A stretch of 52,238 bases of DNA from an uncultured Anaerolineales bacterium (GCA_964437855.1 CAYTJE010000001.1:1-52238); one strand, 5' to 3'; positions 8,111-36,155 are shown, numbered from the stretch's first letter. Made by a program: numbers and translations. Notes: generated by a model from the letters alone, not told the origin.

Positions 8111-8235
8111 TAACAGAAAGACATTCAACGCAGAGCACGCCGAGGACACAGAGAGAAACGACGCCTTCTTGAGTCAGAAGCAAGGCGCTCCTTCGTTCTC
8201 AGCGGTCTCTGCGCTCTCTGCGTTTCATTCTGTTA
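8111..8235. repeat. Inverted pair of family D units (AACGCAGAG-rich) with terminal inverted repeats TAACAGAA..
   Basis: The left end TAACAGAAAGACATTCAACGCAGAGC and right end CTCTCTGCGTTTCATTCTGTTA are inverted copies. The unit resembles those at 37890-37930 and 38049-38080. Confidence 0.65.
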
Positions 8236-8326
8236 GAGGTTGTAAGGCAGGCGGGCGCCGGCACTCGAGGCGGCGTCGGAGGCCACAGGCGTTTCGGCGG
8301 GGGAGGTCTGGAGCCGGATGGCCCCC
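8233..8326 (-). pseudogene. Displaced duplicate of the 3-prime end of the GH15-ferredoxin gene (remnant)
   Basis: 8284-8326 matches 8504-8546 at about 38 of 43 nt by eye. The remnant translates as GAIRLQTSPAETPV..., against GAIRLQTAPAETPV... in the intact gene. Confidence 0.5.
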
Positions 8327-8419
8327 GACTGTTCGCGCGGTGGGCCGGGAGACCCACCGCGCGGAATGGCTGCGACTGTTCGCGCGGTGGGCCGGGAGAC
8401 CCACCGCGCGGAATGGCTG
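8326..8419. repeat. Tandem duplication (2 x 47 bp) of a family A REP hairpin
   Basis: CGACTGTTCGCGCGGTGGGCCGGGAGACCCACCGCGCGGAATGGCTG occurs twice, identical and head to tail. Each unit contains the stem CGCGCGGTGGG / CCCACCGCGCG. Confidence 0.9.
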
Positions 8420-8434
8420 GAGGAGGCAGGACGG

Positions 8435-10843: not shown

Positions 10844-10881
10844 GTGCCGTCTCCATCCGCCCCCGCAGGGCGAAGCGGCGA

Positions 10882-10909
10882 ATTATAGCCGATGCGGCGG
10901 CGGCGTCAA
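10882..10909 (-). promoter_or_regulatory. Sigma70-like promoter for the GH15 gene: TTGACG-16-TATAAT
   Basis: On the minus strand the -35 is at 10909-10904 and the -10 at 10887-10882. It lies about 40 nt upstream of the GTG start. Confidence 0.5.
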
Positions 10910-10920
10910 CCAGGAGCCGA

Positions 10921-11031
10921 GGAACGTTCCCGGAAGTGTTTGTCGGCGCTTGGGCGGGGCCGGCTGAACCTTTTTGGGGGAACGGGAACGGGGAATGCGA
11001 AATGCGGAACGGGGAACGCGGAACGAACGGC
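10921..11031. promoter_or_regulatory. Perfect palindrome GGAACGTTCC plus an array of GGAACG/GGAATG half-site-like repeats
   Basis: The palindrome is at 10921-10930, just upstream of the -35. A G-rich array GGGAACGGGAACGGGGAATGCGAAATGCGGAACGGGGAACGCGGAACGAACGG lies at 10976-11031. Confidence 0.4.
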
Positions 11032-11050
11032 GGCGCCGGAGGCGGGCGGC

Positions 11051-12223
11051 TCAGGCGCCCGCGCGGGTGCGGAGGTTGTCTAAGACGTTCATGAAGTTGA
11101 TGTAGGAATCGTACGGCGACTCGTACGGATTGAAATACGTGTGCACGTCGCCGTCGGCGAACCACTTGGTGCACATGTAGTAGAAGTGGTCGGAGGTCTG
11201 GAGCCGGCGCCAGTCGTGGAGCAGGTCGGGGGCGGCGGCGGCCTTGACGGCCTCCTCCAGGCGGTAGAGTTCGTGCAGGGCGTTCGACTGCATGGCGTTG
11301 CCGAGCCAGGCCGAGAGGTCGCGTTCCATGTCGGCCCAGGAGACCATGTGGGGGACGTCGAGTTCGCCCTCCGGCTCGTAGGTCTCGACGGCCTGCGAGA
11401 GGGTCTTGAAATCGTTCTTCCCGTCCTTCATGACCCGTTCGGGCAGATGGTAGAGGAACGAGAAGATGCCCGACTCGGCCCACTGGTGCTCGCCGAACGT
11501 CTCGTAGTCCATGAACAGGTTGACCACGTACCCGTTGCCGTTGACCTGGTCGACCCAGCGGGCGAAGGTCTCGGCCTTCAGGGGCCATTCGGGCCAGGAG
11601 CGGTCGGAGAAGCGGAAGGCGATGTCGTCGGAGAGCCGATAGTTCTTCAGCAGGAGCCGGATCCGCTCGGCGCCCACCGGCTTGTAGATGAACGCCGGCG
11701 ACCGGTAGCCGAGGATGTGGTCGGCGCCTTCGGCCACGATGCCGGCGTATCCGAGTTCCTCGATGAAATGGGCCAGGTCGTTATTGTAGATGAGTTCGGT
11801 GTTCCGGAAGATGCGCGGCGACACGCCGAACGTCTCCTGCATCCTGGCCGACTGGGCCAGCACCTGCTCGCGGAACTCCTCCCGGCTGTAGAGGAACGCG
11901 AGGCTGTGGTAGTAGGTCTCGGCCAGGAGTTCCACGCGGCCGGTATCCACGAGCGCGCGGAACGAATCGACGACCTCCGGGGCCCACTGCTCGAACTGGT
12001 CCAGCGCCACGCCCGTGATGGAGTAGGAGACGGCGAACTCCGGGTGCTGGCGCAGCAGGTCCAGCATCAGGCGGTTCGACGGCAGGTAGCACCGCTGGGC
12101 CACCTTCCGGCAGACCTCGGCATTGTGGTACTCGTCGAAGTAATTGGCGTCGGAGTCGAAGACGCTGTACCGCCGGAGGCGAAAGGGCTGGTGAACCTGG
12201 AAATAAAAACATATGCTGGCCAT
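11051..12223 (-). CDS. Glycoside hydrolase family 57 (alpha-amylase / alpha-glucan-active enzyme)
   Basis: MASICFYFQVHQPFRLRRY... is a typical GH57 N-terminus, and FMDYETFGEHQW is present. The ATG at 12223 lies 2 nt after the GT4 stop. Confidence 0.85.
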   Translation of the reverse strand: MASICFYFQVHQPFRLRRYSVFDSDANYFDEYHNAEVCRKVAQRCYLPSNRLMLDLLRQHPEFAVSYSITGVALDQFEQWAPEVVDSFRALVDTGRVELLAETYYHSLAFLYSREEFREQVLAQSARMQETFGVSPRIFRNTELIYNNDLAHFIEELGYAGIVAEGADHILGYRSPAFIYKPVGAERIRLLLKNYRLSDDIAFRFSDRSWPEWPLKAETFARWVDQVNGNGYVVNLFMDYETFGEHQWAESGIFSFLYHLPERVMKDGKNDFKTLSQAVETYEPEGELDVPHMVSWADMERDLSAWLGNAMQSNALHELYRLEEAVKAAAAPDLLHDWRRLQTSDHFYYMCTKWFADGDVHTYFNPYESPYDSYINFMNVLDNLRTRAGA

Positions 12224-12225
12224 GC

Positions 12226-13566
12226 TTACGCCTTGGCGACGTCCTGGTACACGTCGAGGCACGCCCGGCCGGCGTCGAGCCAGACGAATTTGCGGACCTC
12301 GAACGCCCCGTGCTCCCGCAGCGTCTTCTGCAGCGGCGGGTGCCGCAGCACCGCCACGATCTTGTTCGCCATCTCGTTGATGTCCCAGAAGTCCACCTTC
12401 AGGGCGTGGGTCAGGATCTCGCTCACCCCGCTCTGCTTCGAGATCAGCACCGGCACGTCGCGCTGAAGCGCCTCCAGCGGCGCCAGGCCGAACGGCTCAG
12501 AGACGCTCGGCATGACGTACAGGTCCGCCATCTTGAACACCCGTTCCAGGTCGCCCCCGCTCAGGAACCCCGTGAACGTCACGCGGTGGCCGATGCCCAT
12601 GGCGGCGGCCAGTTCAATCATCCGCCGAATCATGTCCCCCGACCCCGCCATCACGAACTTCACGTTATCCATGACACCGAGGACCCGGCGGGCGGCGGCC
12701 AGGAAGTACTCCGGGCCCTTCTGCATGGTGATGCGGCCGAGGAACAGCACGATCTTGTCGCCCGTCTCGATGCGCTCGACAGTCGTCGGCACCGGCTCGC
12801 CGTCGATTGTGATGGCGTTGTAGACGACCCGGCATTTCGATTCCGGCACGCCGTAGCGCCCGGTCACGATGCTGCGGGTCAGCCGGCTGACGCAGATCAC
12901 CTGCCGGGCCCCGTGCATGCCGGCCCGTTCCACGTCGTACACCTGCTGGTTAACGGCCGTACCGCTCCGGTCGAACTCCGTCGAGTGCACGTGGACCACG
13001 AGGGGTTTGCCCGTCAGGGCCGACACGCTGAGCCCCGCGGGGTACGTCATCCAGTCGTGGGCGTGAATGACGTCGAACTCGTGTCGGCGAGCGATCTCGG
13101 CCACCAGGCGGGCGTAGCGGTGGACCTCGCTGAAGAGGTCGCCGCCGTAAAGGCCCAGTTCGCCGGTCACGCTTGCGGCGGCGCGGGCGGGCGCGGACGC
13201 CTCCGCCTCCGCCGGCGGCGCCGGCCGAGTAACCTGCCGCGGCCGCGACTCGCGCTCGCGCTGCTCCGCGTAGGCCCGCTCGGTCTGGTACGGGCTCAGC
13301 CCGGAATCGACCGGGATCAGCCGGACGTGCTCCAGGCCGTCCACGGTCCAGTAGGGCTGCTGCTCCCCCTGCCGCTGGTAGGCCTCCTCGGCCGAGAGCA
13401 CGTGGACGCGGTGAAGGGTGCGGCCGCCGCCGCCGCGGGGCAGGACGAACAGGATGTCCGTCCCCAGATCGCTCAGGGCCTTCGTCAGACCGTAGCAGGC
13501 GGTGCCCAGGCCGCCGCTGATGAACGGCGGAAACTCCCAGCCCAGCATGAGGACCCGCATGGTCAC
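12226..13566 (-). CDS. GT4/GT5-type glycosyltransferase (glycogen-synthase-like)
   Basis: MRVLMLGWEFPPFISGGLGTACYGLTKAL N-terminus and a C-terminal GT-B motif, PSVSEPFGLAPLEAL. Operonic with the GH57 gene. Confidence 0.85.
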   Translation of the reverse strand: MTMRVLMLGWEFPPFISGGLGTACYGLTKALSDLGTDILFVLPRGGGGRTLHRVHVLSAEEAYQRQGEQQPYWTVDGLEHVRLIPVDSGLSPYQTERAYAEQRERESRPRQVTRPAPPAEAEASAPARAAASVTGELGLYGGDLFSEVHRYARLVAEIARRHEFDVIHAHDWMTYPAGLSVSALTGKPLVVHVHSTEFDRSGTAVNQQVYDVERAGMHGARQVICVSRLTRSIVTGRYGVPESKCRVVYNAITIDGEPVPTTVERIETGDKIVLFLGRITMQKGPEYFLAAARRVLGVMDNVKFVMAGSGDMIRRMIELAAAMGIGHRVTFTGFLSGGDLERVFKMADLYVMPSVSEPFGLAPLEALQRDVPVLISKQSGVSEILTHALKVDFWDINEMANKIVAVLRHPPLQKTLREHGAFEVRKFVWLDAGRACLDVYQDVAKA

Positions 13567-13807: not shown

Positions 13808-13835
13808 TTGCATCGCGCCCGCGGCCATGTAAGAT
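13808..13835 (+). promoter_or_regulatory. Sigma70-like promoter, divergent from the previous one: TTGCAT-16-TAAGAT
   Basis: The -35 is at 13808-13813 and the -10 at 13830-13835, about 29 nt upstream of ATG 13864. Confidence 0.4.
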
Positions 13836-13863
13836 GCGCCTCGACCCGCAGCAAGGACCCCCC

Positions 13864-15477
13864 ATGGCTGACCCGCAGCGCGTCCTCGTGATCGGTCTGG
13901 ACGGCATGTCGCCGGAGGCGTTGGCGGCGTTGACCGCCCGCGGCGCCATGCCCACCCTCGCCGCGCTTCCGGACCGGGGCGTGGGCGGCGTGCTGGAGTC
14001 GACGGTCCCGCCGTTCACCTGCCCGGCCTGGCCCACCATGTGTACCGGCGTGGGGCCGGGCCGGCACGGCGTCTTCTCGTTCATCCACCGCCGCCCGCAG
14101 AGAGGCCGCGACGGCGCCCGCATCGTGGCGTCCACGGACCTGGCGGCCCCGCGGTTCTGGCAGTTGGCGGCCGAGGCGGGCCGGCGGGCCGCCGTCCTCT
14201 ACGTGCCGACCATGTACCCGGCCGATGCCGTCGAGCCGCTCTTCGTCAGCGGGTTTCCGGCGCCCGACCGACCGGACGCCGGCGCCGTGTACCCGTCGGA
14301 GGCCGAGGCGCCGCTGCGGCGGGCGGTCCCGGCGCTCCAGGAGTCCAACGTCTTCATGCAGGTCCGGCCGGCGCCGGGCGAATCCCCCCACGACGCCCGG
14401 CTGCGACACATCCGCGCCCACGCCGAGGCCGAGGCCGCACGCGTGACCCAGACCTTCGACCTCGCCGCCCGCGAGCGGCTCGACCTGGCGATGGTCGTCT
14501 TCAGTTTCCCGGACCGGGTCTTCCACCCGTACTACGGGTGCGTCGTGGCGGGGGAGGACGCGCCGGCGGACTGGCTGGCCCTCCGCGAGGGCCTCGACGC
14601 CGGCTTCGCCCGGATAGACGGCGTCATCGGCCACCTGCTCGAGCGGTTCGGCGAGCCGGCCACCGTGCTCGTCGTCAGCGACCACGGGTTCACCCGCAAA
14701 CGCGGCGCGTTTTACGTGGGCGAGTGCCTCCGGCAGGCGGGCCTGCTGAAGCCGGCCGGCTGGCGGTACCTCCTGAGCCGCCTCGCGAGGCGCGCGGGCT
14801 CCAAGGACGCCCGCCAGAGCCTCGTCGCGGAAGACCCCTGGGCCGACCCGTCCATCGACTGGCGGAAGACGCAGGTGTTCCCCGCCCACGACCACGAGCG
14901 GGGCCTCTTTGTGAACCTGGCCGGCCGGGGGCCGACCGGCGTCGTTCCCGCCGACGCCCGCGACGCCGTCCTCGACCGGGCCCGCGAGGCCGTCCTGGCG
15001 GTCCGCGACCCCGAGACGGGCGAGCGGCCGGTCCGCGCCGTCCGGCGCCGCGAGGCCGTTTACCGCGGCCCCTTCGTGGACCGGGCCCCCGACCTGCTGC
15101 TGGAGATGGAGACCGGCTGGCACCTTCGCCGGAAACTGGCCTCCCGGCGCCGCGGACGGACGCCCCTCCGACGGTCGGACACCATGGCGGGGATCCACCA
15201 TCCGGACGGCATTCTGCTGGCGTCCGGCCCCGCCGTCCGGCCCGGGGCGGCCCTGGAACGGCCCCAGATTCCGGACATCGCGGCCACGGTCCTGGCGCTG
15301 GCGGGCCTGGCGCCGGGCGAGGCGCTGGACGGCCGGTGCCTGGACGAGGTCTTCGACGTGCCCGCCGGTCCCGTGACCGTCCGGGGTACCGCCGCCGGCC
15401 GGTCGGAGGGCTCCGGCTATTCGGCCGAGGACGAAGCCGAGGTGGCCCGCCGGCTCGAGGACCTGGGGTACCTGTGA
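13864..15477 (+). CDS. Alkaline-phosphatase-superfamily nucleotide pyrophosphatase/phosphodiesterase (NPP-type)
   Basis: VLVIGLDGMS metal site and the PPFTCPAWPTMCTGVGPGRHGV nucleophile region. Start taken at MADPQRVLVIG. Confidence 0.8.
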   Translation: MADPQRVLVIGLDGMSPEALAALTARGAMPTLAALPDRGVGGVLESTVPPFTCPAWPTMCTGVGPGRHGVFSFIHRRPQRGRDGARIVASTDLAAPRFWQLAAEAGRRAAVLYVPTMYPADAVEPLFVSGFPAPDRPDAGAVYPSEAEAPLRRAVPALQESNVFMQVRPAPGESPHDARLRHIRAHAEAEAARVTQTFDLAARERLDLAMVVFSFPDRVFHPYYGCVVAGEDAPADWLALREGLDAGFARIDGVIGHLLERFGEPATVLVVSDHGFTRKRGAFYVGECLRQAGLLKPAGWRYLLSRLARRAGSKDARQSLVAEDPWADPSIDWRKTQVFPAHDHERGLFVNLAGRGPTGVVPADARDAVLDRAREAVLAVRDPETGERPVRAVRRREAVYRGPFVDRAPDLLLEMETGWHLRRKLASRRRGRTPLRRSDTMAGIHHPDGILLASGPAVRPGAALERPQIPDIAATVLALAGLAPGEALDGRCLDEVFDVPAGPVTVRGTAAGRSEGSGYSAEDEAEVARRLEDLGYL

Positions 15478-16478
15478 GCGCCGGCCCCCGGCCGCGCCAG
15501 GATGGATGCGCCGTGGACCCCGACCTGTCCGTCATCATCGTGGCCTACCGCTGCCGGGACGACCTGGCCCGGTGCCTGGAGTCGGTCCGGACAGGCGCGG
15601 CGTCGCTGTCCGCCGAGGTCATCGTGGTCGAGAACGCCAGCGGCGACGGGACCGCCGAGATGGTCCGCGAACGGTTTCCCGAGGTCCACCTGATCGCGAA
15701 CCGCGAGAACCGCGGCTTCGCCGCCGCCTGCAACCAGGGCCTGGCGGTCGCCTCCGGCCGGCACGTCCTGTTCCTGAACCCCGACACCCGGCCGGCCGAG
15801 GGCTCGCTCCCCACGCTGGTGGAGACGCTCGACCGGCATCCGGACGTGGGCGCCTGCGGGCCGCAACTCCGCGGCACGGACGGGGCCATCCAGCCGTCGG
15901 TCCGGACGGACCCGACGCTGGCGGCCCTGCTTCACCAGTTTACGCCGCTGCGTCTGCTGCGGCTGCTGGCGCCGGCGTACCGGCGGTACAAGCGGCGGGA
16001 CATGGATTTCCGGTCCCCCGCCGACGTCGATACCGTGATGGGAGCCGCCCTGTGCGTGCCCCGCCGCGTCCTGGACGAGGTCGGTCCGATGGACGAGCGG
16101 TACTTCGTGTACCACGAGGAGGCGGACCTGTGTCTGCGGATTCGGCGGGCGGGGTACCGCGTGCGGTTCGAGCCGGCCGCCCGGGTCGTCCACGTGGGCG
16201 GCGTGTCGGCCGGCCATGCGGCGGCCAACGTCCTGTACCTGCGGAGCCTGTACCGGTTTCTGTACAAGCATCACGGCCGGCTGAAGGGCGGGCTCATGGT
16301 CGCCGCGCTGCGGGCCGGCCTGTACCTGCGGGAGGCGATGCAGTTGCCGGCCCAGGCCCTGGCGGCCGGGGCGATGCTGGCCGTCGGGCAGGTCGACCGG
16401 GCCGGCCGGCGCGGCCGGCGGGCCTGGCGAGCCTTGCGCTATCTCGGCTGCGACGCCTGGCGAACGCTGTTCGTCTAA
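15474..16478 (+). CDS. GT2-family glycosyltransferase
   Basis: LSVIIVAYRC..., VVENASGDGT, NRGFAAACNQG, FLNPDT and a YHEEADLCLR pattern. The GTG start overlaps the upstream stop (GTGA at 15474-15477). Confidence 0.85.
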   Translation: MSAGPRPRQDGCAVDPDLSVIIVAYRCRDDLARCLESVRTGAASLSAEVIVVENASGDGTAEMVRERFPEVHLIANRENRGFAAACNQGLAVASGRHVLFLNPDTRPAEGSLPTLVETLDRHPDVGACGPQLRGTDGAIQPSVRTDPTLAALLHQFTPLRLLRLLAPAYRRYKRRDMDFRSPADVDTVMGAALCVPRRVLDEVGPMDERYFVYHEEADLCLRIRRAGYRVRFEPAARVVHVGGVSAGHAAANVLYLRSLYRFLYKHHGRLKGGLMVAALRAGLYLREAMQLPAQALAAGAMLAVGQVDRAGRRGRRAWRALRYLGCDAWRTLFV

Positions 16479-16496
16479 CCCTACAACGCTAACCTG

Positions 16497-16569
16497 TGCG
16501 CGGCCCGTACGGGCCGCGCAGGTCAAAAAACGCGACCTCCCGCGCGGCGGCCTTCCAGGGCCGCCGCGC
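16497..16569. repeat. Two family A REP hairpins in the spacer after the GT2 gene
   Basis: TGCGCGGCCC-GTAC-GGGCCGCGCA at 16497-16520 and GCGCGGCGGCC-TTCCAG-GGCCGCCGCGC at 16542-16569. Confidence 0.75.
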
Positions 16570-16600
16570 ATGAGATAATCCGATAGAACGGGGCATTCAG

Positions 16601-17629
16601 GTGCAGAACGGACGAGGCATGCCGGCACCGGACGCGATCGACGCCCCGCTCCGTCTCCGCCACGTGCCGTGCGATTACTGCGGCGCGGAGGAGGCCGAGC
16701 CCTGTCTTTCCGGGCCCGACCGCGTGTGCGGGTTGGAGGGCGAGTTCCACGTGGTCCGGTGCACCCGCTGCGGTCTGCTCCGGACGAACCCCCAGCCCGT
16801 GCCGGAGGACCTGGCCAAGGCCTACCCGCCTTCCTACGACGTGCACGCGGCCTCGGTGACGATTCCCGACCCTCCGACGGGGCTGCTGCGATGGGGCCTG
16901 GTCAACTATCGGAACTATCCCCTTGGCCGAAAGGCCCCCGCTATTGTACGCTGGGTGATGCTGCCCTGGGCCCGGCTGCGGCTTCGGGGGCGCAAGTTCG
17001 TCGATTACGTGCCGTACCGCGGCCAGGGGCGGCTGCTCGACTTCGGATGCGGCACCGGGGGCTACGTGGCCCGGATGGCGGCCGCCGGATGGAAGGCGGA
17101 AGGCATCGACCTGGTTCCGTCGGCGGTGGCCACCGGACGCCGGGCCGGCCTGACCCTTCACGAGGGGACCCTGCCGGGGGCGGCGCTGCCGACCGCCCAC
17201 TACGACGTGATCACCCTGTGGCACGTACTGGAACACGTACCGAGCCCGATGGCCACCTTGAAGGCGGCGCGGGACCTTCTGCGTCCGGACGGGCGGCTGG
17301 TGGTGGTGTGTCCGCTGATGGACAGCCTGGCGGCCGGGTGGTTCGGGGCCTCGTGGTTCGGCCTGCGGGAACTGCCTCGGCACCTGACGCATTTCACGCA
17401 GCGGACGCTGAGGCGTCACCTGGAGGCGGCCGGGCTGGAGGTGGAGCGGGCCCTGCCCATCCGCCGGCCCACGTTCATGCGCCACAGCCTCCTGCAGCGG
17501 GCGGAGGATACGGGCCGGGCACGGTACCGGTGGCTCGCGCAGTCGCGGACCCTGTCGCGCGGGCTGAGCCACCTGGCCCGGCTTCTTGGACGGACCGACG
17601 AGGTGCTGCTTGAGGCCCGGCGGGCCTAG
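16601..17629 (+). CDS. Class I SAM-dependent methyltransferase with an N-terminal Cys4 zinc-ribbon-like motif
   Basis: LLDFGCGTGGYV (motif I). CDYCG...RCTRCG lies at the N-terminus. The start could instead be ATG 16619. Confidence 0.8.
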   Translation: MQNGRGMPAPDAIDAPLRLRHVPCDYCGAEEAEPCLSGPDRVCGLEGEFHVVRCTRCGLLRTNPQPVPEDLAKAYPPSYDVHAASVTIPDPPTGLLRWGLVNYRNYPLGRKAPAIVRWVMLPWARLRLRGRKFVDYVPYRGQGRLLDFGCGTGGYVARMAAAGWKAEGIDLVPSAVATGRRAGLTLHEGTLPGAALPTAHYDVITLWHVLEHVPSPMATLKAARDLLRPDGRLVVVCPLMDSLAAGWFGASWFGLRELPRHLTHFTQRTLRRHLEAAGLEVERALPIRRPTFMRHSLLQRAEDTGRARYRWLAQSRTLSRGLSHLARLLGRTDEVLLEARRA

Positions 17630-17646
17630 CGCGACAGCGCTACTTC

Positions 17647-17750
17647 CCGCGCGGCGGGTCTCCCGGCTTCGCCGCGCGGAGGCAACAACAGCGTTTCCGG
17701 CGGCGCGGTGGCCCAGTCCATACGGAGGCGTATGCCGAGGGCCACCGCGC
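17647..17750. repeat. Two family A REP hairpins in the spacer before the radical SAM gene
   Basis: CCGCGCGGCG...CGCCGCGCGG at 17647-17679 and GCGCGGTGGCCC...GGGCCACCGCGC at 17703-17750. Confidence 0.75.
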
Positions 17751-17778
17751 AGAAGGCACAGCATGAAGGATGTGAGAC

Positions 17779-19269
17779 GTGAAGGTGCTCCTGATACGGC
17801 CGCCCCAGGCGTTCGCCCGTGGCGGTCATGTGGCCGTTCATGTGGATGTCCCGTTGGCCCTGATGTATCTGGGGGCGATTGCCGAACGGGCCGGCCACCA
17901 GGTCGTTCTGTTCGACGCCGCGGTCCAGGCGGACGCCGCGCCCCTGCGGTTCGACGACGAAGGCCGGCTCCACGTCGGGACCGATTGGGACGACGTGGCC
18001 CGGACGGTCGAGGCGGCGGCGCCGGACGTGATCGGCATCACCAGCCTGTACTACACGCAGATGCCGCAGGCGCTGGAGACGGCCCGGGTGGCTCGCCGCG
18101 CCTTGCCCGACGTGCCCATCGTGGTGGGCGGCGCGCCGGTGACGGTCCGGCCGGAGGACTACCTGGCCGAGCCGGCCGTCAGCATGGCCGTGGTGGCCGA
18201 GGGCGACGTGGCCCTGCCGCGGCTGCTCGAGGCCCTGGCGGGGGGGGCCGACCTCCGCGACGTCCCGAACCTGGTGTATCGCGCCGGCGGGGGCCTCCGG
18301 CGCAACCCGGGCGCGGCCTTCGTCGAGGACCTCGATGCGCTGCCCGACCCGGCGTATCACCTGGTGGACCTGCCGCGGTACATGCGGGCGCTCAGCCAGG
18401 ATTCGGCCGGGCGGTGGACATGGAAGCCCCGGCGCCTGATGACGGTCCAGACCAGCCGGGGCTGTCCGTTCGGGTGTACCTACTGCGCGGTCCGGTTGCA
18501 CATGGGCCGCCGGTACCGCGTGCAGTCGCCCGAGCGTGTCCTGTCGCACCTGCGGTTTATTGCAACGGACCCGGGCATCCGGCACATTCATTTCATCGAC
18601 GACAACCTGGGCCAGGATCAGGAGCGTTTTCACGCGATTCTCGACGGCCTGATCCAGATGAAACGCGAGGGCCTGCCGATGGTCTGGGACACCCCCATCG
18701 GCATGCGGACCGACCGGCTGACCTACGACCTCCTGGCCAAGGCCAAGGAGGCCGGCTGCCGGTCGATGTATCTGACCGCGGAATCCGGCTCGCAGCGCGT
18801 GCTCGACCGGGTGATCCGGAAGGGGCTGAAACTCGAGAAGGTCCTCCAGGCCGCCGACGCCTGCAAACGGCTCGGCATCAAGGCGCGGGCCGGCTTCATC
18901 ATGGGCCTGCCCGGCGAAACGCTCGAGGACATGCAGAAGACCATCGAGTTGGCCCGGCACCTCAAGCGGCGTTACGGCATCCGAGGCCACGTGTCCATGG
19001 CCACGCCCCTCTACGGCACGCCGCTGTATGAGACCTGCGAGCGGCAGGGCTACCTCAAGCAGGCGATGACGCCGGAAGCCGTCGCCCGGTCGTTCGCGGA
19101 GGGCGGCATGATCGAGACCGAGGACTGGACCGTGGCCGACCTCCGGCGGATGCGGGATGCCTTCCGGCGCCAGGACGGCTGGGTCCACCGGGCGGTCCGC
19201 ACGGTCCGCACGCGGCTCTTCCGCCTCGGTCGCGGCCCGGCACCCTACGCGAAGGAGACGGAGGGATGA
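17779..19269 (+). CDS. B12-binding-domain radical SAM protein (class B-like)
   Basis: A Rossmann-like B12-binding N-domain (KVLLIRPP..., IGITS, VVGG) followed by TSRGCPFGCTYC (Cx3Cx2C). There is no Cys-rich SPASM tail. GTG start, and the stop overlaps the sulfatase ATG. Confidence 0.85.
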   Translation: MKVLLIRPPQAFARGGHVAVHVDVPLALMYLGAIAERAGHQVVLFDAAVQADAAPLRFDDEGRLHVGTDWDDVARTVEAAAPDVIGITSLYYTQMPQALETARVARRALPDVPIVVGGAPVTVRPEDYLAEPAVSMAVVAEGDVALPRLLEALAGGADLRDVPNLVYRAGGGLRRNPGAAFVEDLDALPDPAYHLVDLPRYMRALSQDSAGRWTWKPRRLMTVQTSRGCPFGCTYCAVRLHMGRRYRVQSPERVLSHLRFIATDPGIRHIHFIDDNLGQDQERFHAILDGLIQMKREGLPMVWDTPIGMRTDRLTYDLLAKAKEAGCRSMYLTAESGSQRVLDRVIRKGLKLEKVLQAADACKRLGIKARAGFIMGLPGETLEDMQKTIELARHLKRRYGIRGHVSMATPLYGTPLYETCERQGYLKQAMTPEAVARSFAEGGMIETEDWTVADLRRMRDAFRRQDGWVHRAVRTVRTRLFRLGRGPAPYAKETEG

Positions 19270-20747
19270 ATCGCCGACGCTTTCTCCAGGCCCTGGCCGG
19301 CGGCGCCGCGGCGGCCATTCCCGAAGGCTTCGCCCGCGCCGCGGGCGCACCGGCCCGCCCCCGCGTGACCAAACCCAACGTCGTCCTCGTGCTCGTGGAC
19401 GACCTGGGATGGACGGACTCCAGCACGTACGGCTCCGAGTACTACGAGACGCCGAACCTCTCGCGTCTGGCGGCCGGCGGCATGACGTTCACCGACGCCT
19501 ACGCGGCGTGCGCGGTCTGCTCGCCGACGCGGGCGGCGGTAATGACCGGCCGGTGGCCGGCCCGGCTGGGCGTCACGGACTGGATCCGGGCGCGGTTCCA
19601 GGGCGGCACGATCCCCGAGGACCACGAGCCGCCCTCCGGGTGGTGGAGCCGGCCCGGCTTCAAACTCCGGTGCCCCGAGAACGCCCTCTGGCTGAACCTC
19701 TCGGAGATCACCATCGCCGAGGCCCTGAAAGCGGCCGGCTACGTCTCCTGCCACATCGGCAAATGGCACCTGGGCGCCGACCCGTGGTATCCGGACAAGC
19801 AAGGCTTCGACGTTAACATCGGGGGGTGCGACTTCGGCCAGCCGCCGTCGTATTTCGATCCGTACGAGAAGCGCCGGCAGGGGCGGATTCCGACCCTCGA
19901 GCCCCGCGCCGAGGGCGAGTACCTGACGGACCGCGAGGGCGACGAGGCCGCCCGCTTCATCCGGACCTCGGCCCGCGCCGGCCGGCCGTTCTTCCTCTAC
20001 ATGGCCCACTACGCCGTCCACACGCCCATCCAGGCCAAGAAGGACCTCATCGAGAAATACCAGGCGAAGCCCCCGACCGATCGGCATACGAACGCCACCT
20101 ACGCCGCCATGATCGAGAGCGTCGATACCGCCCTCGGCACCATCCTGAAGGCCCTGGACGAGGCCGGCGTGGCCGGCCACACCCTCGTCATCTTTACCAG
20201 CGACAACGGCGGCCTGGTGCCCATAACGCGGAACACGCCGCTGCGGGCCGGCAAGGGATACCCGTACGAGGGCGGCATCCGGGAGCCGCTCGTCGTCCGC
20301 TGGCCGGGCGTCACCACGCCCGGCAGCACGTGCGACGTGCCCGTGACGAGCGTGGACCACTTCCCGACGATCTGCCAGGCCGCCGGCGTGGGGCTTCCGA
20401 CGGACCGGGCCATCGACGGCGAGAGCCTCCTGCCGTTGCTCCGTGGCACGGGCGGCCTGAAGCGGGAGGCCATCTACTGGCACTTTCCGCATTACCGGCA
20501 GGGGCACCGCGTGCCGCCCTACAGCATCGTCCGCCAGGGCGACTGGAAACTCATCCGCTGGCACGAGGGCCCCACCTGGGAACTCTACCATCTGGCCGAC
20601 GACCTCTCCGAGACGAACGACCTCGCGCCCGCGATGCCCGAGAAGGTCCAGGCGCTGGACGCTCAACTGATGGCGCACCTTCGAGAGGTCGGCGCCAAGA
20701 TGCCCGAACCGAACCCGTCGTACAAACCGAAAGCCCGGAAAGGATGA
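19266..20747 (+). CDS. Sulfatase 1 (Cys-type, Tat signal)
   Basis: MNRRRFLQALAGGAAAA Tat-like signal, VDDLGW and CSPTRAAVMTGR (CxPxR). Confidence 0.9.
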   Translation: MNRRRFLQALAGGAAAAIPEGFARAAGAPARPRVTKPNVVLVLVDDLGWTDSSTYGSEYYETPNLSRLAAGGMTFTDAYAACAVCSPTRAAVMTGRWPARLGVTDWIRARFQGGTIPEDHEPPSGWWSRPGFKLRCPENALWLNLSEITIAEALKAAGYVSCHIGKWHLGADPWYPDKQGFDVNIGGCDFGQPPSYFDPYEKRRQGRIPTLEPRAEGEYLTDREGDEAARFIRTSARAGRPFFLYMAHYAVHTPIQAKKDLIEKYQAKPPTDRHTNATYAAMIESVDTALGTILKALDEAGVAGHTLVIFTSDNGGLVPITRNTPLRAGKGYPYEGGIREPLVVRWPGVTTPGSTCDVPVTSVDHFPTICQAAGVGLPTDRAIDGESLLPLLRGTGGLKREAIYWHFPHYRQGHRVPPYSIVRQGDWKLIRWHEGPTWELYHLADDLSETNDLAPAMPEKVQALDAQLMAHLREVGAKMPEPNPSYKPKARKG

Positions 20748-22201
20748 CGATGAACCGCCGACGCTTTCTCCGCCGAGCCGGCCTCGGTGCCGCCGCCCTG
20801 CTGGCCGGGGGCCGGTCCGCCGCCCGCGCCGCCTCTTCCGCCGACAAGCCCAACATCCTCTTCATCATGGTCGACGACCTGGGCAAGGAATGGGTCGGCT
20901 GCTACGGGGGCGAGGACATCGAGACGCCGAACCTGGACCGTCTGGCCGCCGGCGGCATGCGGTTCGAAAACGCCTACTCCATGCCGCAGTGCACGCCGTC
21001 GCGCGTCACGCTCCTGACCGGCCGGTACCCCTGGCGGACCGGTTGGGTCAACCACTGGGACGTCCCGCGATGGGGCGTCGGGTACTTCGACTGGAAATGC
21101 CATACCACGTACGCGAATATCCTGAAGACGGCCGGCTACGCCACCGCCGTCGCCGGCAAATGGCAGATCAACGACTTCCGCCTCGAACCGAATGCCCTCG
21201 AGAAGCATGGATTCGACCAGTGGTGCCTGTGGACCGGCGGCGAGGGCGGCAACCGCAAGTCCAACAAGCGGTACTGGGACCCCTACATCCACACCCGCGA
21301 CGGCAGCAAGACCTACGAGGGCCAGTTCGGCCCGGCCCTCTACACCGATTTCCTCATCGACTTCATGGCCCGCCACAAAGACGAGCCGATGGGCCTCTAC
21401 TTCCCCATGTGCCTGACCCACGGTCCCCAGGTCCACACCCCGGACGAGCCGGACGCCAAGGGCAAACTGGCCAGGCACAAGGCCATGGTCCGGTACACCG
21501 ACAAACTCGTCGGCCGGCTCGTGGGCGCCCTGGACGACCTCGGCATCCGCGACCGCACCCTCATCATCTTCACGACCGACAACGGCACGAGCGGCCGGTT
21601 CACGGGGACACTGAACGGCCACAAGGTGCGCGGCGGCAAGGGCAAGGAGAGCGAGGCCGGCGTCTGCGCCCCGTTTCTCGTCAACGGGCCGGGCCTGGTG
21701 CCGGCCGGCGTCGTGACCGATGCCCTGACGGACTTCACGGACCTGCTGCCGACCTTCGCGGACCTCGCCGGCGCGGCGGTGCCGGCCGACTGGCCGGTGG
21801 ACGGCGTCTCCATCGCCCCGCTGCTCCTGGGCCGGGCCGAAGATTCGCCCCGCCAATACATCCTGGCCATGGGGCACGGTCCGGCCGCCCTGGACAACGA
21901 GGGCGTGCGCGGCCGGGCCGACTACGCCACCCGCGTGATCCGCGACAAGCGGTTCAAGGTGTGGGTGGATCATCACGCGACGATCATCCGCCTGCACGAC
22001 CTGAAGGCCGACCCCTTCGAGGAGAAGAACCTCCTCGCGAGCGCGGAGCCGGAGCACAAGGCCGCCCTCGCCAAGTTCCAGGCCGTTCTCGACACCATGC
22101 CCAAGACCGACGCCCGGCCCAAGTACGAGCCGCGCGCGGCCAATCCGTGGGATCGCAAACCCGCCTCGGCCAAACGCAAGAAGAGAAAGAAGAACCCGTG
22201 A
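20744..22201 (+). CDS. Sulfatase 2 (Cys-type, Tat signal)
   Basis: MTMNRRRFLRRAGLGAAALLA, MVDDLG and CTPSRVTLLTGR. ATGA overlap with sulfatase 1. Confidence 0.9.
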   Translation: MTMNRRRFLRRAGLGAAALLAGGRSAARAASSADKPNILFIMVDDLGKEWVGCYGGEDIETPNLDRLAAGGMRFENAYSMPQCTPSRVTLLTGRYPWRTGWVNHWDVPRWGVGYFDWKCHTTYANILKTAGYATAVAGKWQINDFRLEPNALEKHGFDQWCLWTGGEGGNRKSNKRYWDPYIHTRDGSKTYEGQFGPALYTDFLIDFMARHKDEPMGLYFPMCLTHGPQVHTPDEPDAKGKLARHKAMVRYTDKLVGRLVGALDDLGIRDRTLIIFTTDNGTSGRFTGTLNGHKVRGGKGKESEAGVCAPFLVNGPGLVPAGVVTDALTDFTDLLPTFADLAGAAVPADWPVDGVSIAPLLLGRAEDSPRQYILAMGHGPAALDNEGVRGRADYATRVIRDKRFKVWVDHHATIIRLHDLKADPFEEKNLLASAEPEHKAALAKFQAVLDTMPKTDARPKYEPRAANPWDRKPASAKRKKRKKNP

Positions 22202-22257
22202 CCGCCCAGCGCGACCTCGCCGTGGCCGCGCGGGGCTCAAGACAGAAAGGAGACCCG

Positions 22258-23976
22258 ATGAACCGCCGCCAGTTTCTGCGAACCGCCGGTCTCGGAGCCG
22301 CCGCCTTCCTCACCGGGTGCCGGGCCGCCGCCCGTGCAGCCGCCCCGGCCAAGCGGCCGAACATCATCCTCATCATGTCCGACGACATGGGGTACTCGGA
22401 CCTCGGGTGCTACGGGGGCGAGATTGAGACGCCCACCCTCAATTCGCTAGCGGCCAAGGGCGTCCGCTTCACCCAGTTCTACAACACGGCCCGGTGCTGC
22501 CCCACGCGGGCCAGCCTGATGACCGGCCTGTACCAGCACCAGGCGGCCGTCGGCCACATGATGGGCGACCGCAACCTGCCGGGCTACCGCGGCGACCTGA
22601 GCCGGAATGCCGTCACCATTGCCGAGGCCGTCAAGCCCGCCGGCTACGCCGCCTACATGTCCGGCAAGTGGCACGTGACGCCCCACACCCGCCCGGACGG
22701 CCCCAAGCACAACTGGCCGCGGGCGCGCGGGTTCGACCGTTTCTTCGGCACCATCCACGGGGCGGGGTCGTTCTACGACCCGAACAGCCTGACCCGCGAC
22801 AACACCCAGATTCCGCCCGGCAAGGACTTCTATTACACCGATGCCATCAGCGACAATGCCGCCGGCTACATCCGCGACCACAGGAAGCAGAAACCCGACG
22901 CGCCCTTCTTCATGTACGTGGCCTATACGGCCGCCCACTGGCCGATGCACGCCCGGCCGGAAGACATCGCCCGCTACAAAGGCCGGTACGACGCGGGCTG
23001 GCAGGAGATCCGCCAGGCCCGGTACAAACGGATGCGCCGGATGGGCCTCCTGAAGGAGCCGTGGGACCTCTCGCCCCGCGACGCCAAACGCTGGGAACAG
23101 GTCTCGGAGGCAGACAAAAAGTGGCACGCCCGCCGCATGGAAGTCTACGCCGCCATGGTCACCGTCATGGACTCTGGGCTAGGCCGCATCGTCCAGGCCC
23201 TGAAGGAGACCGGCCAGTACGAGAACACGCTCATCCTCTTCCTCGAGGACAACGGCGGGTGCGCCGAGGAGTTCGGCAGCCGCGGCAAGCCGCGCAACCA
23301 CGCCAAAAACCTCAAGAAGGCCGAACCGATGGCCCCGGACGCCCTCCAGACCCACATGGTGCCGCCCGTCACGCGCGACGGCCGCCCCGTGCGCGTGGGT
23401 CACGGCGTAATGCCCGGCCCGGCCGACACGTACATCGCCTACGGCAAGGAGTGGGCGAACGTCTCGAACACCCCCTTCCGCCTGTACAAGCACTGGGTGC
23501 ACGAGGGCGGCACCGCCACGCCGCTCATCGCCCACTGGCCCGCCGGCATCCCGACGGACCGGCACGGGGCGATGGAGCGGCAGCCCGGCCACCTCATCGA
23601 CATCATGGCCACCTGCGTCGACCTCGCCGGCGCCGACTATCCCGAAACGTTCAAGGGGAACCGGATCACGCCGATGCAGGGCGTGAGCCTGGCCCCAGCG
23701 TTCCTCGGCAAAGACGTGGGCCGCGACGAGCCCATCTACTTCGAGCACGAGGGCAACCGCGCCATCCGCGACGGCAAGTGGAAACTCGTCGCCAAGGGCG
23801 CGGGCGGACCGTGGGAACTGTACGACATGGAGGCCGACCGCAGCGAACTCCACGACCTGGCCGGGAAGCACCCCGACCGCGTCCAGGCGATGGCCGAGCG
23901 GTGGGAGGCCTTCGCCCGCCAGGCCCACATGATCCCCTGGCCCTGGAAAGGCAAGTACCGACGCAAGAAGGGATAA
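22258..23976 (+). CDS. Sulfatase 3 (arylsulfatase-like, Cys-type, Tat signal)
   Basis: MNRRQFLRTAGLGAAAFL, MSDDMGYSD and CCPTRASLMTG. GAAAGGAG RBS at 22245-22252. Confidence 0.9.
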   Translation: MNRRQFLRTAGLGAAAFLTGCRAAARAAAPAKRPNIILIMSDDMGYSDLGCYGGEIETPTLNSLAAKGVRFTQFYNTARCCPTRASLMTGLYQHQAAVGHMMGDRNLPGYRGDLSRNAVTIAEAVKPAGYAAYMSGKWHVTPHTRPDGPKHNWPRARGFDRFFGTIHGAGSFYDPNSLTRDNTQIPPGKDFYYTDAISDNAAGYIRDHRKQKPDAPFFMYVAYTAAHWPMHARPEDIARYKGRYDAGWQEIRQARYKRMRRMGLLKEPWDLSPRDAKRWEQVSEADKKWHARRMEVYAAMVTVMDSGLGRIVQALKETGQYENTLILFLEDNGGCAEEFGSRGKPRNHAKNLKKAEPMAPDALQTHMVPPVTRDGRPVRVGHGVMPGPADTYIAYGKEWANVSNTPFRLYKHWVHEGGTATPLIAHWPAGIPTDRHGAMERQPGHLIDIMATCVDLAGADYPETFKGNRITPMQGVSLAPAFLGKDVGRDEPIYFEHEGNRAIRDGKWKLVAKGAGGPWELYDMEADRSELHDLAGKHPDRVQAMAERWEAFARQAHMIPWPWKGKYRRKKG

Positions 23977-23996
23977 GCGGGCCCCGCCCGTCGGCC

Positions 23997-24105
23997 GAGT
24001 CCCGACCGAGCCGGTCGCGGAAGCGGCCGGTTATCGCCTCCCGTCGTGGTCCGAGCCGCCGCGACTAACCCCGCCCCGCCGCTGCCGCGTCGGGCTGAGC
24101 ACGGA
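23997..24105 (+). repeat. Sulfatase-leader element, divergent copy c4
   Basis: Hairpins CCGGTCGC-GGAA-GCGGCCGG and CCCGCCGC-TGCC-GCGTCGGG, with a core ..CCCGTCGTGGTCCGAG. It ends 14 nt before the sulfatase 4 ATG. Confidence 0.5.
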
Positions 24106-24118
24106 GAAAGGCCCTCTT

Positions 24119-25618
24119 ATGAACCGCCGCACGTTTCTGCACTCGGCCGGCCTGGGGGCCGTGGGCCTGGCCCGGGCCGCCACCGCCATGGAGCGGGCCC
24201 CCAGCGCCGCTCGCTCGCGCTCGCGGCTAGCAGAGACAAACCGGGTCGCGACCGCCCCCCGAGCCGCGACCCTAAGGGAGCGGCCCAACATCCTCCTCAT
24301 CCTCCCCGACGACCAGACCTGGCGAGACAACGGCTGTTACGGCCACCCGGACGTCCGCACGCCGAACATCGACCGCCTGGCCGAGGCGGGCATGCGGTTT
24401 ACCCACTGCTTTACCGCGACGGCCATGTGCGCCCCCACCCGCCAGCAACTCTACACGGGCCTCTTTCCCGTCCGAAACGGCGCCTACCCGAACCACAGCC
24501 GCGTCTACGGCGGGACCCGGAGCATGGTCCACCACCTGAAGGCCCTGGGGTACCGGGTGGGCATCGCCGGGAAACACCACTTCGGCCCGCGCGACTCGTT
24601 CCCCTTTGAGAACCTCAAGCCCAAGGACGTGCCGGCGTTCATCGGCCGCAAGCCGGACGAGCCGTTCTGCCTCATCGTCTGCTCGCACAGCCCGCACCTG
24701 CCGTGGAAGGCCGGCGACGCCTCCGCCTACGACCCGGACGCCCTCACCCTGCCGCCCTACCTGGTGGATACGCCCGAGACGCGCGAGGCCCTCACGAAGT
24801 ACTACGCCGAGATCACGGACTTCGACCGCGAGGTGGGCGAGTGCATGCGGCACGTGCGTGAGGCCGGCGCCGAGAAGGACACGATCTTCATCTACACGAG
24901 CGAGCAGGGCGCCCAGTTCCCGCACGGCAAATGGACGTGTTACGACGTGGGCCTGCGCACCGCCCTGGTGGTCCGCTGGCCCCGTCGCGTCAAACCGGGC
25001 ACCACCACCGACGCCCTGGTCCAGTACGTGGACGTGGTGCCGACGCTGATCGAGGCGGCCGGCGGCGACCCGGCCCGGATCGACACCGGCTGCCCGGACG
25101 CCCGGGGCGAGACCGGCTTCGACGGCCGCAGTTTCCTCGGCGTCCTCCTCGGCCGGGCCGACACGCACCGCGACGCCGTCTACGGCGCCCACACCACGCG
25201 GGGCATCATCGCCGGGTCCGACTGTTACCCCATCCGCTCGGTCCGCACCCGGCGGTACAAGTATATCCGCAACCTGAACCACGAGTCGGCGTTCCACAAC
25301 GTCCTGATCCAGCGGGAGAAGTCCTACTGGCCGTCGTGGCAGGAGAAGGCCAAGACCGACCCCAAGGCCGCCTACCTGGTCCGGATGTACGAGCACCGGC
25401 CGGCCGAGGAACTCTACGACCTGCGGGCGGACCCGTGGGAACTGGAGAACCTGGCCGATGAGCCCGCCCTGGCCCGGGTCAAGGCCGACCTCCGCAAACG
25501 CCTGGACGCCTGGATGGCCCAGCAGGGTGATAAGGGCAACGCCACCGAGATGCAGGCCCGCCAGCGCCAGGGCCGCGGCAAGAAGAAGAAACGGGCCAAG
25601 GCCAAACCGGACGCCTGA
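24119..25618 (+). CDS. Sulfatase 4 (Cys-type, Tat signal; heparan/N-sulfoglucosamine-sulfatase-like)
   Basis: MNRRTFLHSAGLGAVGLA, LPDDQ and CAPTRQQLYTGL. The spacer between the signal and the mature domain is unusually long. Confidence 0.9.
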   Translation: MNRRTFLHSAGLGAVGLARAATAMERAPSAARSRSRLAETNRVATAPRAATLRERPNILLILPDDQTWRDNGCYGHPDVRTPNIDRLAEAGMRFTHCFTATAMCAPTRQQLYTGLFPVRNGAYPNHSRVYGGTRSMVHHLKALGYRVGIAGKHHFGPRDSFPFENLKPKDVPAFIGRKPDEPFCLIVCSHSPHLPWKAGDASAYDPDALTLPPYLVDTPETREALTKYYAEITDFDREVGECMRHVREAGAEKDTIFIYTSEQGAQFPHGKWTCYDVGLRTALVVRWPRRVKPGTTTDALVQYVDVVPTLIEAAGGDPARIDTGCPDARGETGFDGRSFLGVLLGRADTHRDAVYGAHTTRGIIAGSDCYPIRSVRTRRYKYIRNLNHESAFHNVLIQREKSYWPSWQEKAKTDPKAAYLVRMYEHRPAEELYDLRADPWELENLADEPALARVKADLRKRLDAWMAQQGDKGNATEMQARQRQGRGKKKKRAKAKPDA

Positions 25619-25674: not shown

Positions 25675-25703
25675 TTGACCGTGGCGGGTGGGCGGTTTAG
25701 AAT
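25675..25703 (+). promoter_or_regulatory. Sigma70-like promoter for sppA: TTGACC-17-TAGAAT
   Basis: The -35 is at 25675-25680 and the -10 at 25698-25703. AAGGAGA RBS at 25723-25729. Confidence 0.55.
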
Positions 25704-30697: not shown

Positions 30698-31528
30698 GTG
30701 ACGGTTTCCGCCGACGAGAGGGATTCCGTGACCGATCTGGCCGTCGTCTTCCCGACTGCCGGCGAGTTCGAGAAGGCCCGCCGCGCCCTTCGCCACGCCG
30801 GGGCAGCCTACCGGGTCGTGGAGCCGCCCGTCGAGGTCGCCGACGTGGCCGTGCCGCTGCTCGTCCTGCCCGACGCCTCGCGCGGAGCCCTGCACGAGTC
30901 CTTACGCGCCGGCGTGATGATGGCCGGCCAGGTGCCTTACCGGGAACCGGCGGGCGACGTCCTGGCCGACCTGCCGCCCGCCCCGGCCGGCGCCGACGAC
31001 GTCGTCGGCCGCATCACCATCGCCTTCGTCGGCCCGTGCGTCGCCACCGCGGACGAGATCCGGTTCACGGCCCAGGTCCAGGGCGACCTGGCGCCGGTGA
31101 TGCCGTATCTGAACGCCACCCTCCCCGCCGGCACGTATGGACCGGAGGGGCCCACGTTCACCTTGATGGACGGTCAGCGGCTGGTGAATCTGTCGGGACA
31201 CCGTATCGCGGTCTCGCGCTGCCGCGAGATGCTCGACGCCTGGCGGACGCTGGCCAAGGTCAAACGCACGGTGCTGGACGTGTGGTCGCGGCGAGAGGGG
31301 ATTCAGCCAAGCACGGAGCGGCGCGTCCAGGTCACGGCCCTGGAGGTCTACCAGCGGACGCCGCAGATCAACTGCGGCGCCTGCGGCGAGCCGACGTGCA
31401 TGGCCTTCGCCGCCCGGCTCGTGGCAGGGGAGCAGCGGCCGGAGCACTGCACGCCGGCGCTGGAGGGCGAATACCAGCATCTGCGCGCGGGCCTGCGGGA
31501 GATCGCCGACCGCCTTGGGCTGGGATGA
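30698..31528 (+). CDS. (Fe-S)-binding protein: DUF3343-like N-domain plus a C-terminal CFeSP/RnfB-type 4Fe-4S domain
   Basis: C-terminal INCGACGEPTCMAFAARLVAGEQRPEHC. The N-terminal VVFPTAGEFEKARRALRHAGAAYRVV resembles DUF3343. The start is either 30698 (GTG) or 30728 (GTG with GAGAGGGA upstream). Confidence 0.6.
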   Translation: MTVSADERDSVTDLAVVFPTAGEFEKARRALRHAGAAYRVVEPPVEVADVAVPLLVLPDASRGALHESLRAGVMMAGQVPYREPAGDVLADLPPAPAGADDVVGRITIAFVGPCVATADEIRFTAQVQGDLAPVMPYLNATLPAGTYGPEGPTFTLMDGQRLVNLSGHRIAVSRCREMLDAWRTLAKVKRTVLDVWSRREGIQPSTERRVQVTALEVYQRTPQINCGACGEPTCMAFAARLVAGEQRPEHCTPALEGEYQHLRAGLREIADRLGLG

Positions 31529-34518: not shown

Positions 34519-34543
34519 CCCCGCACAGCACGAAAGGACCGCC

Positions 34544-36145: not shown

Positions 36146-36155
36146 AGCGCCAAGT

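Follow-up and report, generated by a model that had tools for sequence, protein, structure and literature searches.

A class B radical SAM enzyme of a putative glycoconjugate cassette, probably brought beside a Cys-type sulfatase array by rearrangement

Two kinds of maturase are known for Cys-type sulfatases, FGE and anSME; the second is a radical S-adenosylmethionine (SAM) enzyme in which a SPASM domain at the C-terminus binds two auxiliary [4Fe-4S] clusters through its 7-8 cysteines. Among radical SAM enzymes with a B12-binding domain, HpnJ forms a ring-contraction pair with HpnI, a family-2 glycosyltransferase (GT2). In Planctomycetes-Verrucomicrobia-Chlamydiae (PVC) bacteria hundreds of sulfatases depend on one anSME or on a few FGEs, and strains with that many sulfatases have a single anSME, one such enzyme maturing many of them (PMC6388578). 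Elsewhere, the DUF2304 proteins GacJ and Rv3632 are activators or partners of GT2 polyprenyl-phosphate-sugar synthases (bioRxiv 10.1101/180810). All of these bear on a stretch of 52,238 nucleotides from an uncultured Anaerolineales bacterium (GCA_964437855.1 CAYTJE010000001.1:1-52238; the whole stretch is called the window below), in which the gene for a 496-residue radical SAM protein (rSAM; 17779-19269, + strand) overlaps the start of a sulfatase gene. The reading we consider likely is that rSAM is a class B enzyme of a glycoconjugate cassette that has been joined to an ordinary sulfatase array by rearrangement, the sulfatase maturase being encoded elsewhere.

The class B (B12-binding-domain) assignment comes from Pfam, which places B12-binding (PF02310) at residues 25-149 (76.7 bits, cutoff 32.1) and Radical_SAM (PF04055) at residues 224-392 (90.1 bits, 2.4e-25). 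The CX3CX2C motif, C229/C233/C236, is invariant in 112 of 113 homologues; the protein has six cysteines, and the three outside the motif (C327, C362 and C420) are kept in 87-91% of the 113, down to 35% identity. They are possible ligands of one auxiliary site for a metal or cluster, of a kind not described for this subfamily. Neither SPASM (PF13186) nor Fer4 is matched even at E<=5, there is no FGE-sulfatase domain (PF03781), and because three non-core cysteines are too few, the two SPASM clusters of anSME are ruled out. A sequence-only reading of this stretch had described a Cx3Cx2C motif with a B12-binding-type N-domain and no SPASM-like cysteine clusters, and had held that the protein is not a canonical anSME; Pfam and the cysteine count agree with it on both points, and no anSME appears among the best 25 of 29 NCBIfam matches, the matches of a hidden Markov model (HMM) to PDB sequences, or the top 50 Foldseek matches in PDB.

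What kind of class B enzyme rSAM might be is less easily said. It reaches no curated NCBIfam equivalog: the best scores, in bits over cutoff, are ApyD 166/750, HpnJ 161/578 and the Sden_1168 P-methyltransferase 159/575, and further ones are BchE 114/481, BzaD 110/450, MgmA-type 107/360, HpnR 98/650 and AprD4 74/500. Its profile finds AprD4, MgmA (9ccb), OxsB, TokK, CysS and TsrM among PDB sequences, and its AlphaFold model (pLDDT 83.6, pTM 0.83; the predicted beta-alpha pattern agrees with a class B fold) retrieves AprD4, TsrM, MgmA, OxsB, CysS and TokK in Foldseek, with AprD4 at the top (E 4e-24, TM 0.70-0.76, ~21% identity). Its sequence makes rSAM a class B radical SAM enzyme, uncharacterised and covered by no curated family; use of cobalamin is only predicted from the domain content, there being no universal sequence motif for it. 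Homologues number in the hundreds, and the orthologues at 60-85% identity all come from Phycisphaerae/Planctomycetota metagenome assemblies; relatives keep the GTG start and a Shine-Dalgarno sequence of GGAAAGG type.

Because the window has a G+C content of 70%, long spurious open reading frames (ORFs) are plentiful in it; the gene map was set by third-position GC (GC3) analysis together with Pfam and NCBIfam scans. On this map rSAM does not head a sulfatase operon, as had been claimed, but stands fourth in a same-strand run: phosphodiesterase-like gene, GT2, zinc-ribbon methyltransferase, rSAM, sulfatases. The run opens at 13834-15477 (+) with an optional cassette member, a probably cytoplasmic protein of 547 residues from the phosphodiesterase/alkaline-phosphatase superfamily (Pfam Phosphodiest, 2.4e-42), whose nucleophile loop, FTCPAWPTMCTG, carries Thr and has no CxPxR motif. 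GT2 follows (15513-16478, +; ~321 residues, frame from GC3, Pfam Glycos_transf_2 3.6e-25, no transmembrane helix; top NCBIfam match MftF-like, far below cutoff), and after it a class I SAM methyltransferase with an N-terminal CxxC...CxxC zinc ribbon (MT23; 16601-17629, +; 342 residues, Pfam Methyltransf_23 1.5e-28). Among PDB sequences, nothing beyond generic matches was found for MT23, GT2 or the phosphodiesterase-like protein. All four cassette proteins are probably cytoplasmic, since none shows the 19-residue hydrophobic window typical of a transmembrane helix. A consensus scan of the + strand found no promoter- or terminator-like site from 13834 to 25618 and did detect promoter-like sites before the next two genes beyond 25618, which is weak evidence; Rfam at gathering thresholds gave no riboswitch or RNA family in the whole window, the 149-nt MT23-rSAM spacer included.

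The same partners recur elsewhere. Eighty-one loci (cited here by L numbers) were gathered from genome and metagenome collections and by exact-protein look-ups, and the window proteins were mapped onto them; counts are of distinct orthologous loci, with rSAM at least 60% identical and near-identical contigs merged. MT23, the most constant partner, lies directly upstream of rSAM in 20 of the 24 assessable loci (Phycisphaerae), the two genes overlapping by 4 nt in L018 and lying 3-10 nt apart in L073 and L075. GT2 orthologues, at 59-82% identity, precede this pair in most loci, and upstream of GT2 there is either an orthologue of the phosphodiesterase-like gene (L001/L019, L023, L008) or a gene for a methyltransferase-like protein of 226-235 residues (18 loci). 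Cassette loci with Pfam annotation are L018, L019, L073, L074, L075 and L081. On the downstream side, four distinct relatives of the closest clade (L019, L022, L023 and L081; at least 80% identity) share the order rSAM, DUF2304, AhpC/thioredoxin-redoxin, and L019 also carries a GT-C (PMT_2) gene and a second GT2+DUF2304 pair nearby. As judged from these comparisons, a cassette of GT2, methyltransferase and class B rSAM, as yet uncharacterised, is widespread among Phycisphaerae; literature searches on it, and on anSME in Phycisphaerae, turned up no specific report. A more distant rSAM subgroup, at 48-52% identity, is without the cassette partners. In L076 (5863-8584), from a Phycisphaerales metagenome-assembled genome, a 39% rSAM paralogue comes right after a gene for a 362-residue radical SAM/SPASM protein, beside GT2 and GT4 genes; the SPASM gene was considered as an anSME and rejected, its best model being a tungsten-cofactor maturase, below cutoff.

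What would such a cassette do? Its general form is a phosphodiesterase-like or small methyltransferase-like gene, GT2, MT23 and rSAM, with rSAM as the last enzyme gene and, in the closest relatives, DUF2304 after it. GT2 would build a glycoconjugate, probably of envelope type, to which the class I methyltransferase would add an O- or N-methyl group; rSAM would then use radical chemistry on a carbon that is not activated, in all likelihood to C-methylate it with the help of cobalamin, or alternatively to bring about a sugar rearrangement of the AprD4 or HpnJ kind. Another possibility, unlikely although it retains some weight, is that the cassette targets a lipid or phosphonate, by hopanoid tailoring like that of HpnJ/HpnR or P-methylation like that of Sden_1168/PhpK, and that its adjacency to sulfatases is accidental. 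HpnJ works with the GT2 HpnI, both HpnJ and Sden_1168 score just behind ApyD, and the neighbouring alkaline-phosphatase-superfamily protein is weakly similar to phosphonoacetate hydrolase; these scores are, however, 3-4 fold under the family cutoffs, and the neighbourhoods examined contained neither a squalene-hopene cyclase nor a PEP mutase nor any further gene of such pathways. That rSAM is instead a C-methyltransferase of an unrecognised peptide, acting on a ribosomally synthesised and post-translationally modified peptide (RiPP) or a protein in the manner of ApyD, PoyC or MgmA, is distinctly improbable: ApyD is the top NCBIfam match and MgmA is among the best folds, but the ApyD score is far under its cutoff, and neither a conserved ORF for a small precursor nor a peptidase/transporter set lies beside the cassette.

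If rSAM belongs to a glycoconjugate cassette, its contact with sulfatase genes needs another explanation. The sequence-only reading had considered rSAM as a possible sulfatase-associated enzyme. When the six-frame ORFs of the first 78 loci were all searched with an HMM made from the seven window sulfatases, a single gene came up, in L002/L024, upstream of the cassette; L079 and L080 were found by searching from the sulfatase side. Of the 22 distinct orthologous loci whose sequence extends 1 kb or more past rSAM, only one has a sulfatase there, and that one, L079, has the window's own junction: orthologues in other genomes are essentially not linked to sulfatases, an outcome which that reading had itself named as speaking against such an enzyme.

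The gene order in L079 is small-methyltransferase-like gene, GT2, MT23, an unrelated sulfatase, rSAM, sulfatases 1 and 2, a beta-helix gene, sulfatases 3 and 4, SppA and HemL; sulfatase 4 appears fragmented there. Its rSAM and sulfatase 1 have the same ATGA overlap as those of the window, and the housekeeping neighbours SppA and HemL are 90-91% identical to the window's. Because both share the rSAM-sulfatase 1 junction, it is older than the split between the window and L079. The cassette is absent from L080, where the order is GDE, GH15, GH57, GT4, a sulfatase, sulfatases 1 and 2, a beta-helix gene and further sulfatases. The window has a divergent glycogen-type cluster of the same composition (GDE, GH15-ferredoxin, GH57, GT4 by Pfam; 5820-13566, - strand), with L080 genes 66-88% identical to its own, and this cluster is the apparent ancestral left flank of the sulfatase array. 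The metagenome of L080 also holds two contigs, L023 and L025, that have the cassette and no sulfatase.

The junction itself (19236-19269, +), when aligned with L019, L079 and L080, carries traces of how it was made. The rSAM stop does overlap the sulfatase 1 ATG, as first described (TGA at 19267-19269 over ATG at 19266-19268), and 18858-20498 is spanned without differences by a Logan contig, an independent assembly of the source run; when RNA-seq data were looked for, the window sequence came up only in three DNA runs, all of one microbial-mat metagenome study. In both the window and L079 the rSAM ORF runs 10 codons beyond the stop that L019 retains from the ancestor (...GRGPAPYAKETEG), an extension confined to these two. 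It crosses GAAGGAGACGGAGGG, the Shine-Dalgarno region of sulfatase 1, which aligns with the leader of sulfatase 1 in L080, GAAAGGAGAC. The first stop then met in frame is the TGA lying over the sulfatase 1 ATG, and there the ORF terminates. Because rSAM reads past its ancestral stop and through the sulfatase 1 Shine-Dalgarno sequence, the ATGA overlap looks like a by-product, or scar, of rearrangement, and the sulfatase adjacency is best read as a derived arrangement limited to the window and one close relative, L079.

A simple insertion of the sulfatase block was rejected: the genes downstream of rSAM in L019 (DUF2304, AhpC, Redoxin) were searched for in the window without a match, and because they are missing beyond the block, the event would have been a flank replacement or a translocation. 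Through it the cassette would have come to abut, by its 3' end, the leader of a Tat-type (twin-arginine), Cys-type sulfatase array already present beside the glycogen cluster, costing rSAM its own stop, so that it would now read through the sulfatase 1 ribosome-binding site. With a junction made in this way, cassette and sulfatases would probably be co-transcribed here without being functionally coupled. Sliding nucleotide identity along the rSAM gene shows no recombination breakpoint. In an rSAM protein tree the window and L079 are not sisters (0/200 bootstraps), despite their common 3' end and downstream synteny: the MT23 and GT2 of the window are closest to those of L079, and its rSAM is closest to that of L019. 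This conflict could stem from recombination inside the cassette or from rate variation, and leaves the overall reading unaffected.

The unrelated sulfatase of L079 (3787-5214), ~30% identical to any window sulfatase, lies between MT23 and rSAM and breaks their otherwise constant adjacency. It was considered as an orthologue of the first sulfatase of L080 or of the upstream sulfatase of L002, and this was rejected; because identities are only 30-33%, the three are independent paralogues. At the corresponding spot, the MT23-rSAM spacer of the window contains a 44-nt nested perfect palindrome (17705-17748, +), GCGGTGGCCC..CATACG-GAGG-CGTATG..GGGCCACCGC, which RNA folding predicts to form a hairpin of -42.8 kcal/mol (z = -3.8). 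It occurs once in the window; in the source run its Logan word depth is 170 versus ~10 in the flanks (~17x), and many contigs of that run join only to 17703-17754. Probably this is a REP-like repeat of dispersed kind; it might act as a hot spot for recombination, or serve to process or stabilise mRNA.

The array on the other side of the junction consists of seven PF00884 sulfatases (E 2e-35 to 7.5e-60), starting at 19266, 20744, 22258, 24119, 31756, 34544 and 36276. In each, a single Cys-type motif sits where it is expected, in the N-terminal active-site loop, and fits the S1 pattern C/S-x-P-x-R-x4-TG (CSPTR, CTPSR, CCPTR, CAPTR, CAPAR, CNPTR and CGPTR, in that order); of the two forms first ascribed to them, C-x-P-x-R is found in all seven and C-x-A-x-R in none. 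All seven N-termini have an RRxFL twin-arginine motif and an Ala/Gly-rich h-region, and Pfam TAT_signal matches sulfatases 1, 3 and 5 weakly, below the gathering score. Sulfatase 1 (19266-20747, +; S1 family, CSPTR with Cys at residue 85, RRxFL N-terminus, Pfam Sulfatase 3.7e-55) has orthologues at 86% identity in L079 and 80% in L080. Sulfatase 2 (20744-22201, or from ATG 20750, +; CTPSR, Pfam and motif) has two in-frame ATGs 6 nt apart: the one at 20744 gives the ATGA overlap with sulfatase 1 that had been described, while the one at 20750, perhaps the likelier start, gives an MNRRRFL N-terminus like those of the paralogues and lies 2 nt past the sulfatase 1 stop, so that with it there is no overlap. 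The start of sulfatase 3 (22258-23976, +; CCPTR, Pfam and motif) does lie 56 nt past the sulfatase 2 stop, as stated in the same description. That 56-nt gap (22202-22257) is all there is between sulfatases 2 and 3 in the window, where L079 (10186-12156) and L080 (12939-15182) have a beta-helix (Pel9A-like lyase) gene, 83% identical between them. Sulfatase 4 (24119-25618, +; CAPTR, Pfam and motif) is the last gene before a promoter-like site at 25675-25703. A second group, 31756-37856 (+), is made up of sulfatase 5 (31756-34329; 857 residues, with a C-terminal extension matching DUF5077 and HEAT repeats by Pfam), sulfatase 6 (34544-36145) and sulfatase 7 (36276-37856), the last two also Pfam sulfatases of Cys type with RRxFL N-termini. 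Between the two groups, 30698-31528 (+) encodes a 276-residue protein that carries at its C-terminus a PF04060 "FeS" domain, of the N-terminal type of CdhD/acetyl-CoA synthase gamma.

How are these sulfatases matured? No ORF of the window matches PF03781 or SPASM, permissive thresholds included, in a search of all its GC3-supported ORFs, with unassigned ones screened to E<=5; the initial report of no FGE or anSME in view was accurate. The only other radical SAM gene of the window (41492-42865) is of the MiaB/MtaB methylthiotransferase type. Because so few maturases are enough for hundreds of sulfatases in PVC bacteria, the lack of one within 52 kb is unremarkable, and the maturase of these seven is most likely encoded elsewhere in the genome, which fits both the findings and published biology: seven ordinary S1-family sulfatases would receive formylglycine in the cytoplasm from an FGE or anSME made at another locus.

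The sequence-only reading had also left room for rSAM as a sulfatase-associated enzyme or non-canonical maturase, which would convert Cys to formylglycine, or make some other modification, on co-transcribed sulfatases before Tat export. Several observations are compatible with this: the ATGA overlap is kept in both the window and L079, neither known maturase was found in the 52 kb, the Tat-type N-termini imply maturation in the cytoplasm, where rSAM also resides, and B12-binding radical SAM protein modifiers exist, MgmA, which methylates MCR, being among the best folds. We nevertheless find the proposal hardly credible. Sulfatase linkage is missing from 21 of the 22 orthologous loci with downstream sequence, the junction is a derived scar, the GT2-MT23 partners are intact and as well conserved as rSAM, SPASM is absent with only three non-core cysteines, and L080 has the same sulfatase array without rSAM beside it. 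A narrower version, in which rSAM has been co-opted in the window/L079 lineage as a SPASM-less formylglycine maturase or other modifier of Tat-exported sulfatases, would explain why the rSAM-sulfatase 1 overlap persists even in L079, where another gene separates rSAM from MT23; it earns equally little credence.

Very improbable as well is a catabolic recruitment, in which rSAM would act on a sulfated or desulfated sugar, for example by AprD4-like dehydration or rearrangement, as part of a polysaccharide-utilisation operon. AprD4, a sugar 1,2-diol dehydratase, is the best PDB match in both sequence and fold, the homologous arrays of L079 and L080 include the lyase-like beta-helix gene, and the junction is kept in two lineages. 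The sulfatases are predicted to be exported, however, and rSAM is probably cytoplasmic; the usual context of the family (GT2, methyltransferases, DUF2304) is biosynthetic, not catabolic; and AprD4 is distant in sequence.

The reading of rSAM as a cassette enzyme displaced against a sulfatase array has its own difficulties. The rSAM-sulfatase 1 junction has been kept in two lineages that are ~15% diverged, and a sulfatase abuts the cassette in three of the seven distinct loci of the closest clade (at least 79% identity). This mild clustering of sulfatases round the cassette (the window/L079 junction, the L079 insert, the L002 upstream gene) is not formally separable from chance in these sulfatase-dense genomes, and because of that a very small weight is retained on a lineage-specific, sulfatase-related role for rSAM and a slightly larger one on a catabolic role. 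Four orthologous loci have rSAM alone, with no MT23 or GT2, three of them after ClpX/GpsA and one with a phosphodiesterase-like gene downstream on the opposite strand. DUF2304 is missing from the window, and the cassette GT2 is without transmembrane helices; the enzyme that matches rSAM best in fold, AprD4, is reported not to use cobalamin; and the search that found no FGE or anSME covered this one 52-kb contig.

Two further observations concern other parts of the window. In the glycogen-type cluster, the GH15 glucoamylase-like protein encoded at 8435-10843 (-), between GDE and GH57-GT4, has a 2x[4Fe-4S] ferredoxin domain as its C-terminal part. It is unusual for a glycoside hydrolase to be combined with a redox domain in this way; L080 has the fusion too. 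Positions 1-2000 have a lower GC fraction (0.62 versus ~0.70) and include an N6/N4 DNA methyltransferase gene (711-1568, -); this end of the contig may be of foreign origin or preserve what is left of a restriction-modification system.

A B12-type third route to formylglycine, if true, would be important for sulfatase biology and for aldehyde-tag biotechnology. Tight gene overlap in sulfatase-rich Planctomycetota can also arise by rearrangement, and here the evidence points that way. The interest that remains is more modest: a cassette that probably makes a C-methylated or rearranged envelope glycoconjugate.

Set beside the described systems, rSAM resembles anSME (AtsB/ChuR/anSMEcpe) in its radical SAM core, cytoplasmic location and adjoining Cys-type sulfatases, and differs in having no SPASM domain, in its B12-binding N-domain and in orthologues that are not sulfatase-linked. 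With the GT2 + DUF2304 systems GacI/GacJ and PpgS/Rv3632 the likeness is the DUF2304 gene right after rSAM in four close relatives; the cassette GT2 is of a different, longer subtype, the window is without DUF2304, and the Gac and Ppg systems have no known methyltransferase or radical SAM enzyme. HpnI/HpnJ, of hopanoid cyclitol-ether synthesis, likewise combine a GT2 with a B12-binding radical SAM enzyme, and HpnJ is the second-best NCBIfam match, but at 161 bits to a cutoff of 578 and with no hopanoid genes near the rSAM cassette. The class B enzymes as a whole (TsrM, TokK, CysS, OxsB, MgmA and the GenK/Fom3 type) share with rSAM the Rossmann B12 N-domain and the CX3CX2C barrel; identity to solved members is 18-23%, scores are under one third of the NCBIfam cutoffs, and TokK, CysS and OxsB are longer than its 496 residues. 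AprD4, the apramycin 1,2-diol dehydratase (6fd2), shares 21% identity with rSAM, and no AprD3-like partner reductase is seen here; it is nonetheless the best PDB match by HMM (1e-26) as well as by Foldseek, is of similar length, and acts on a sugar, which fits the GT2 and methyltransferase context of rSAM.

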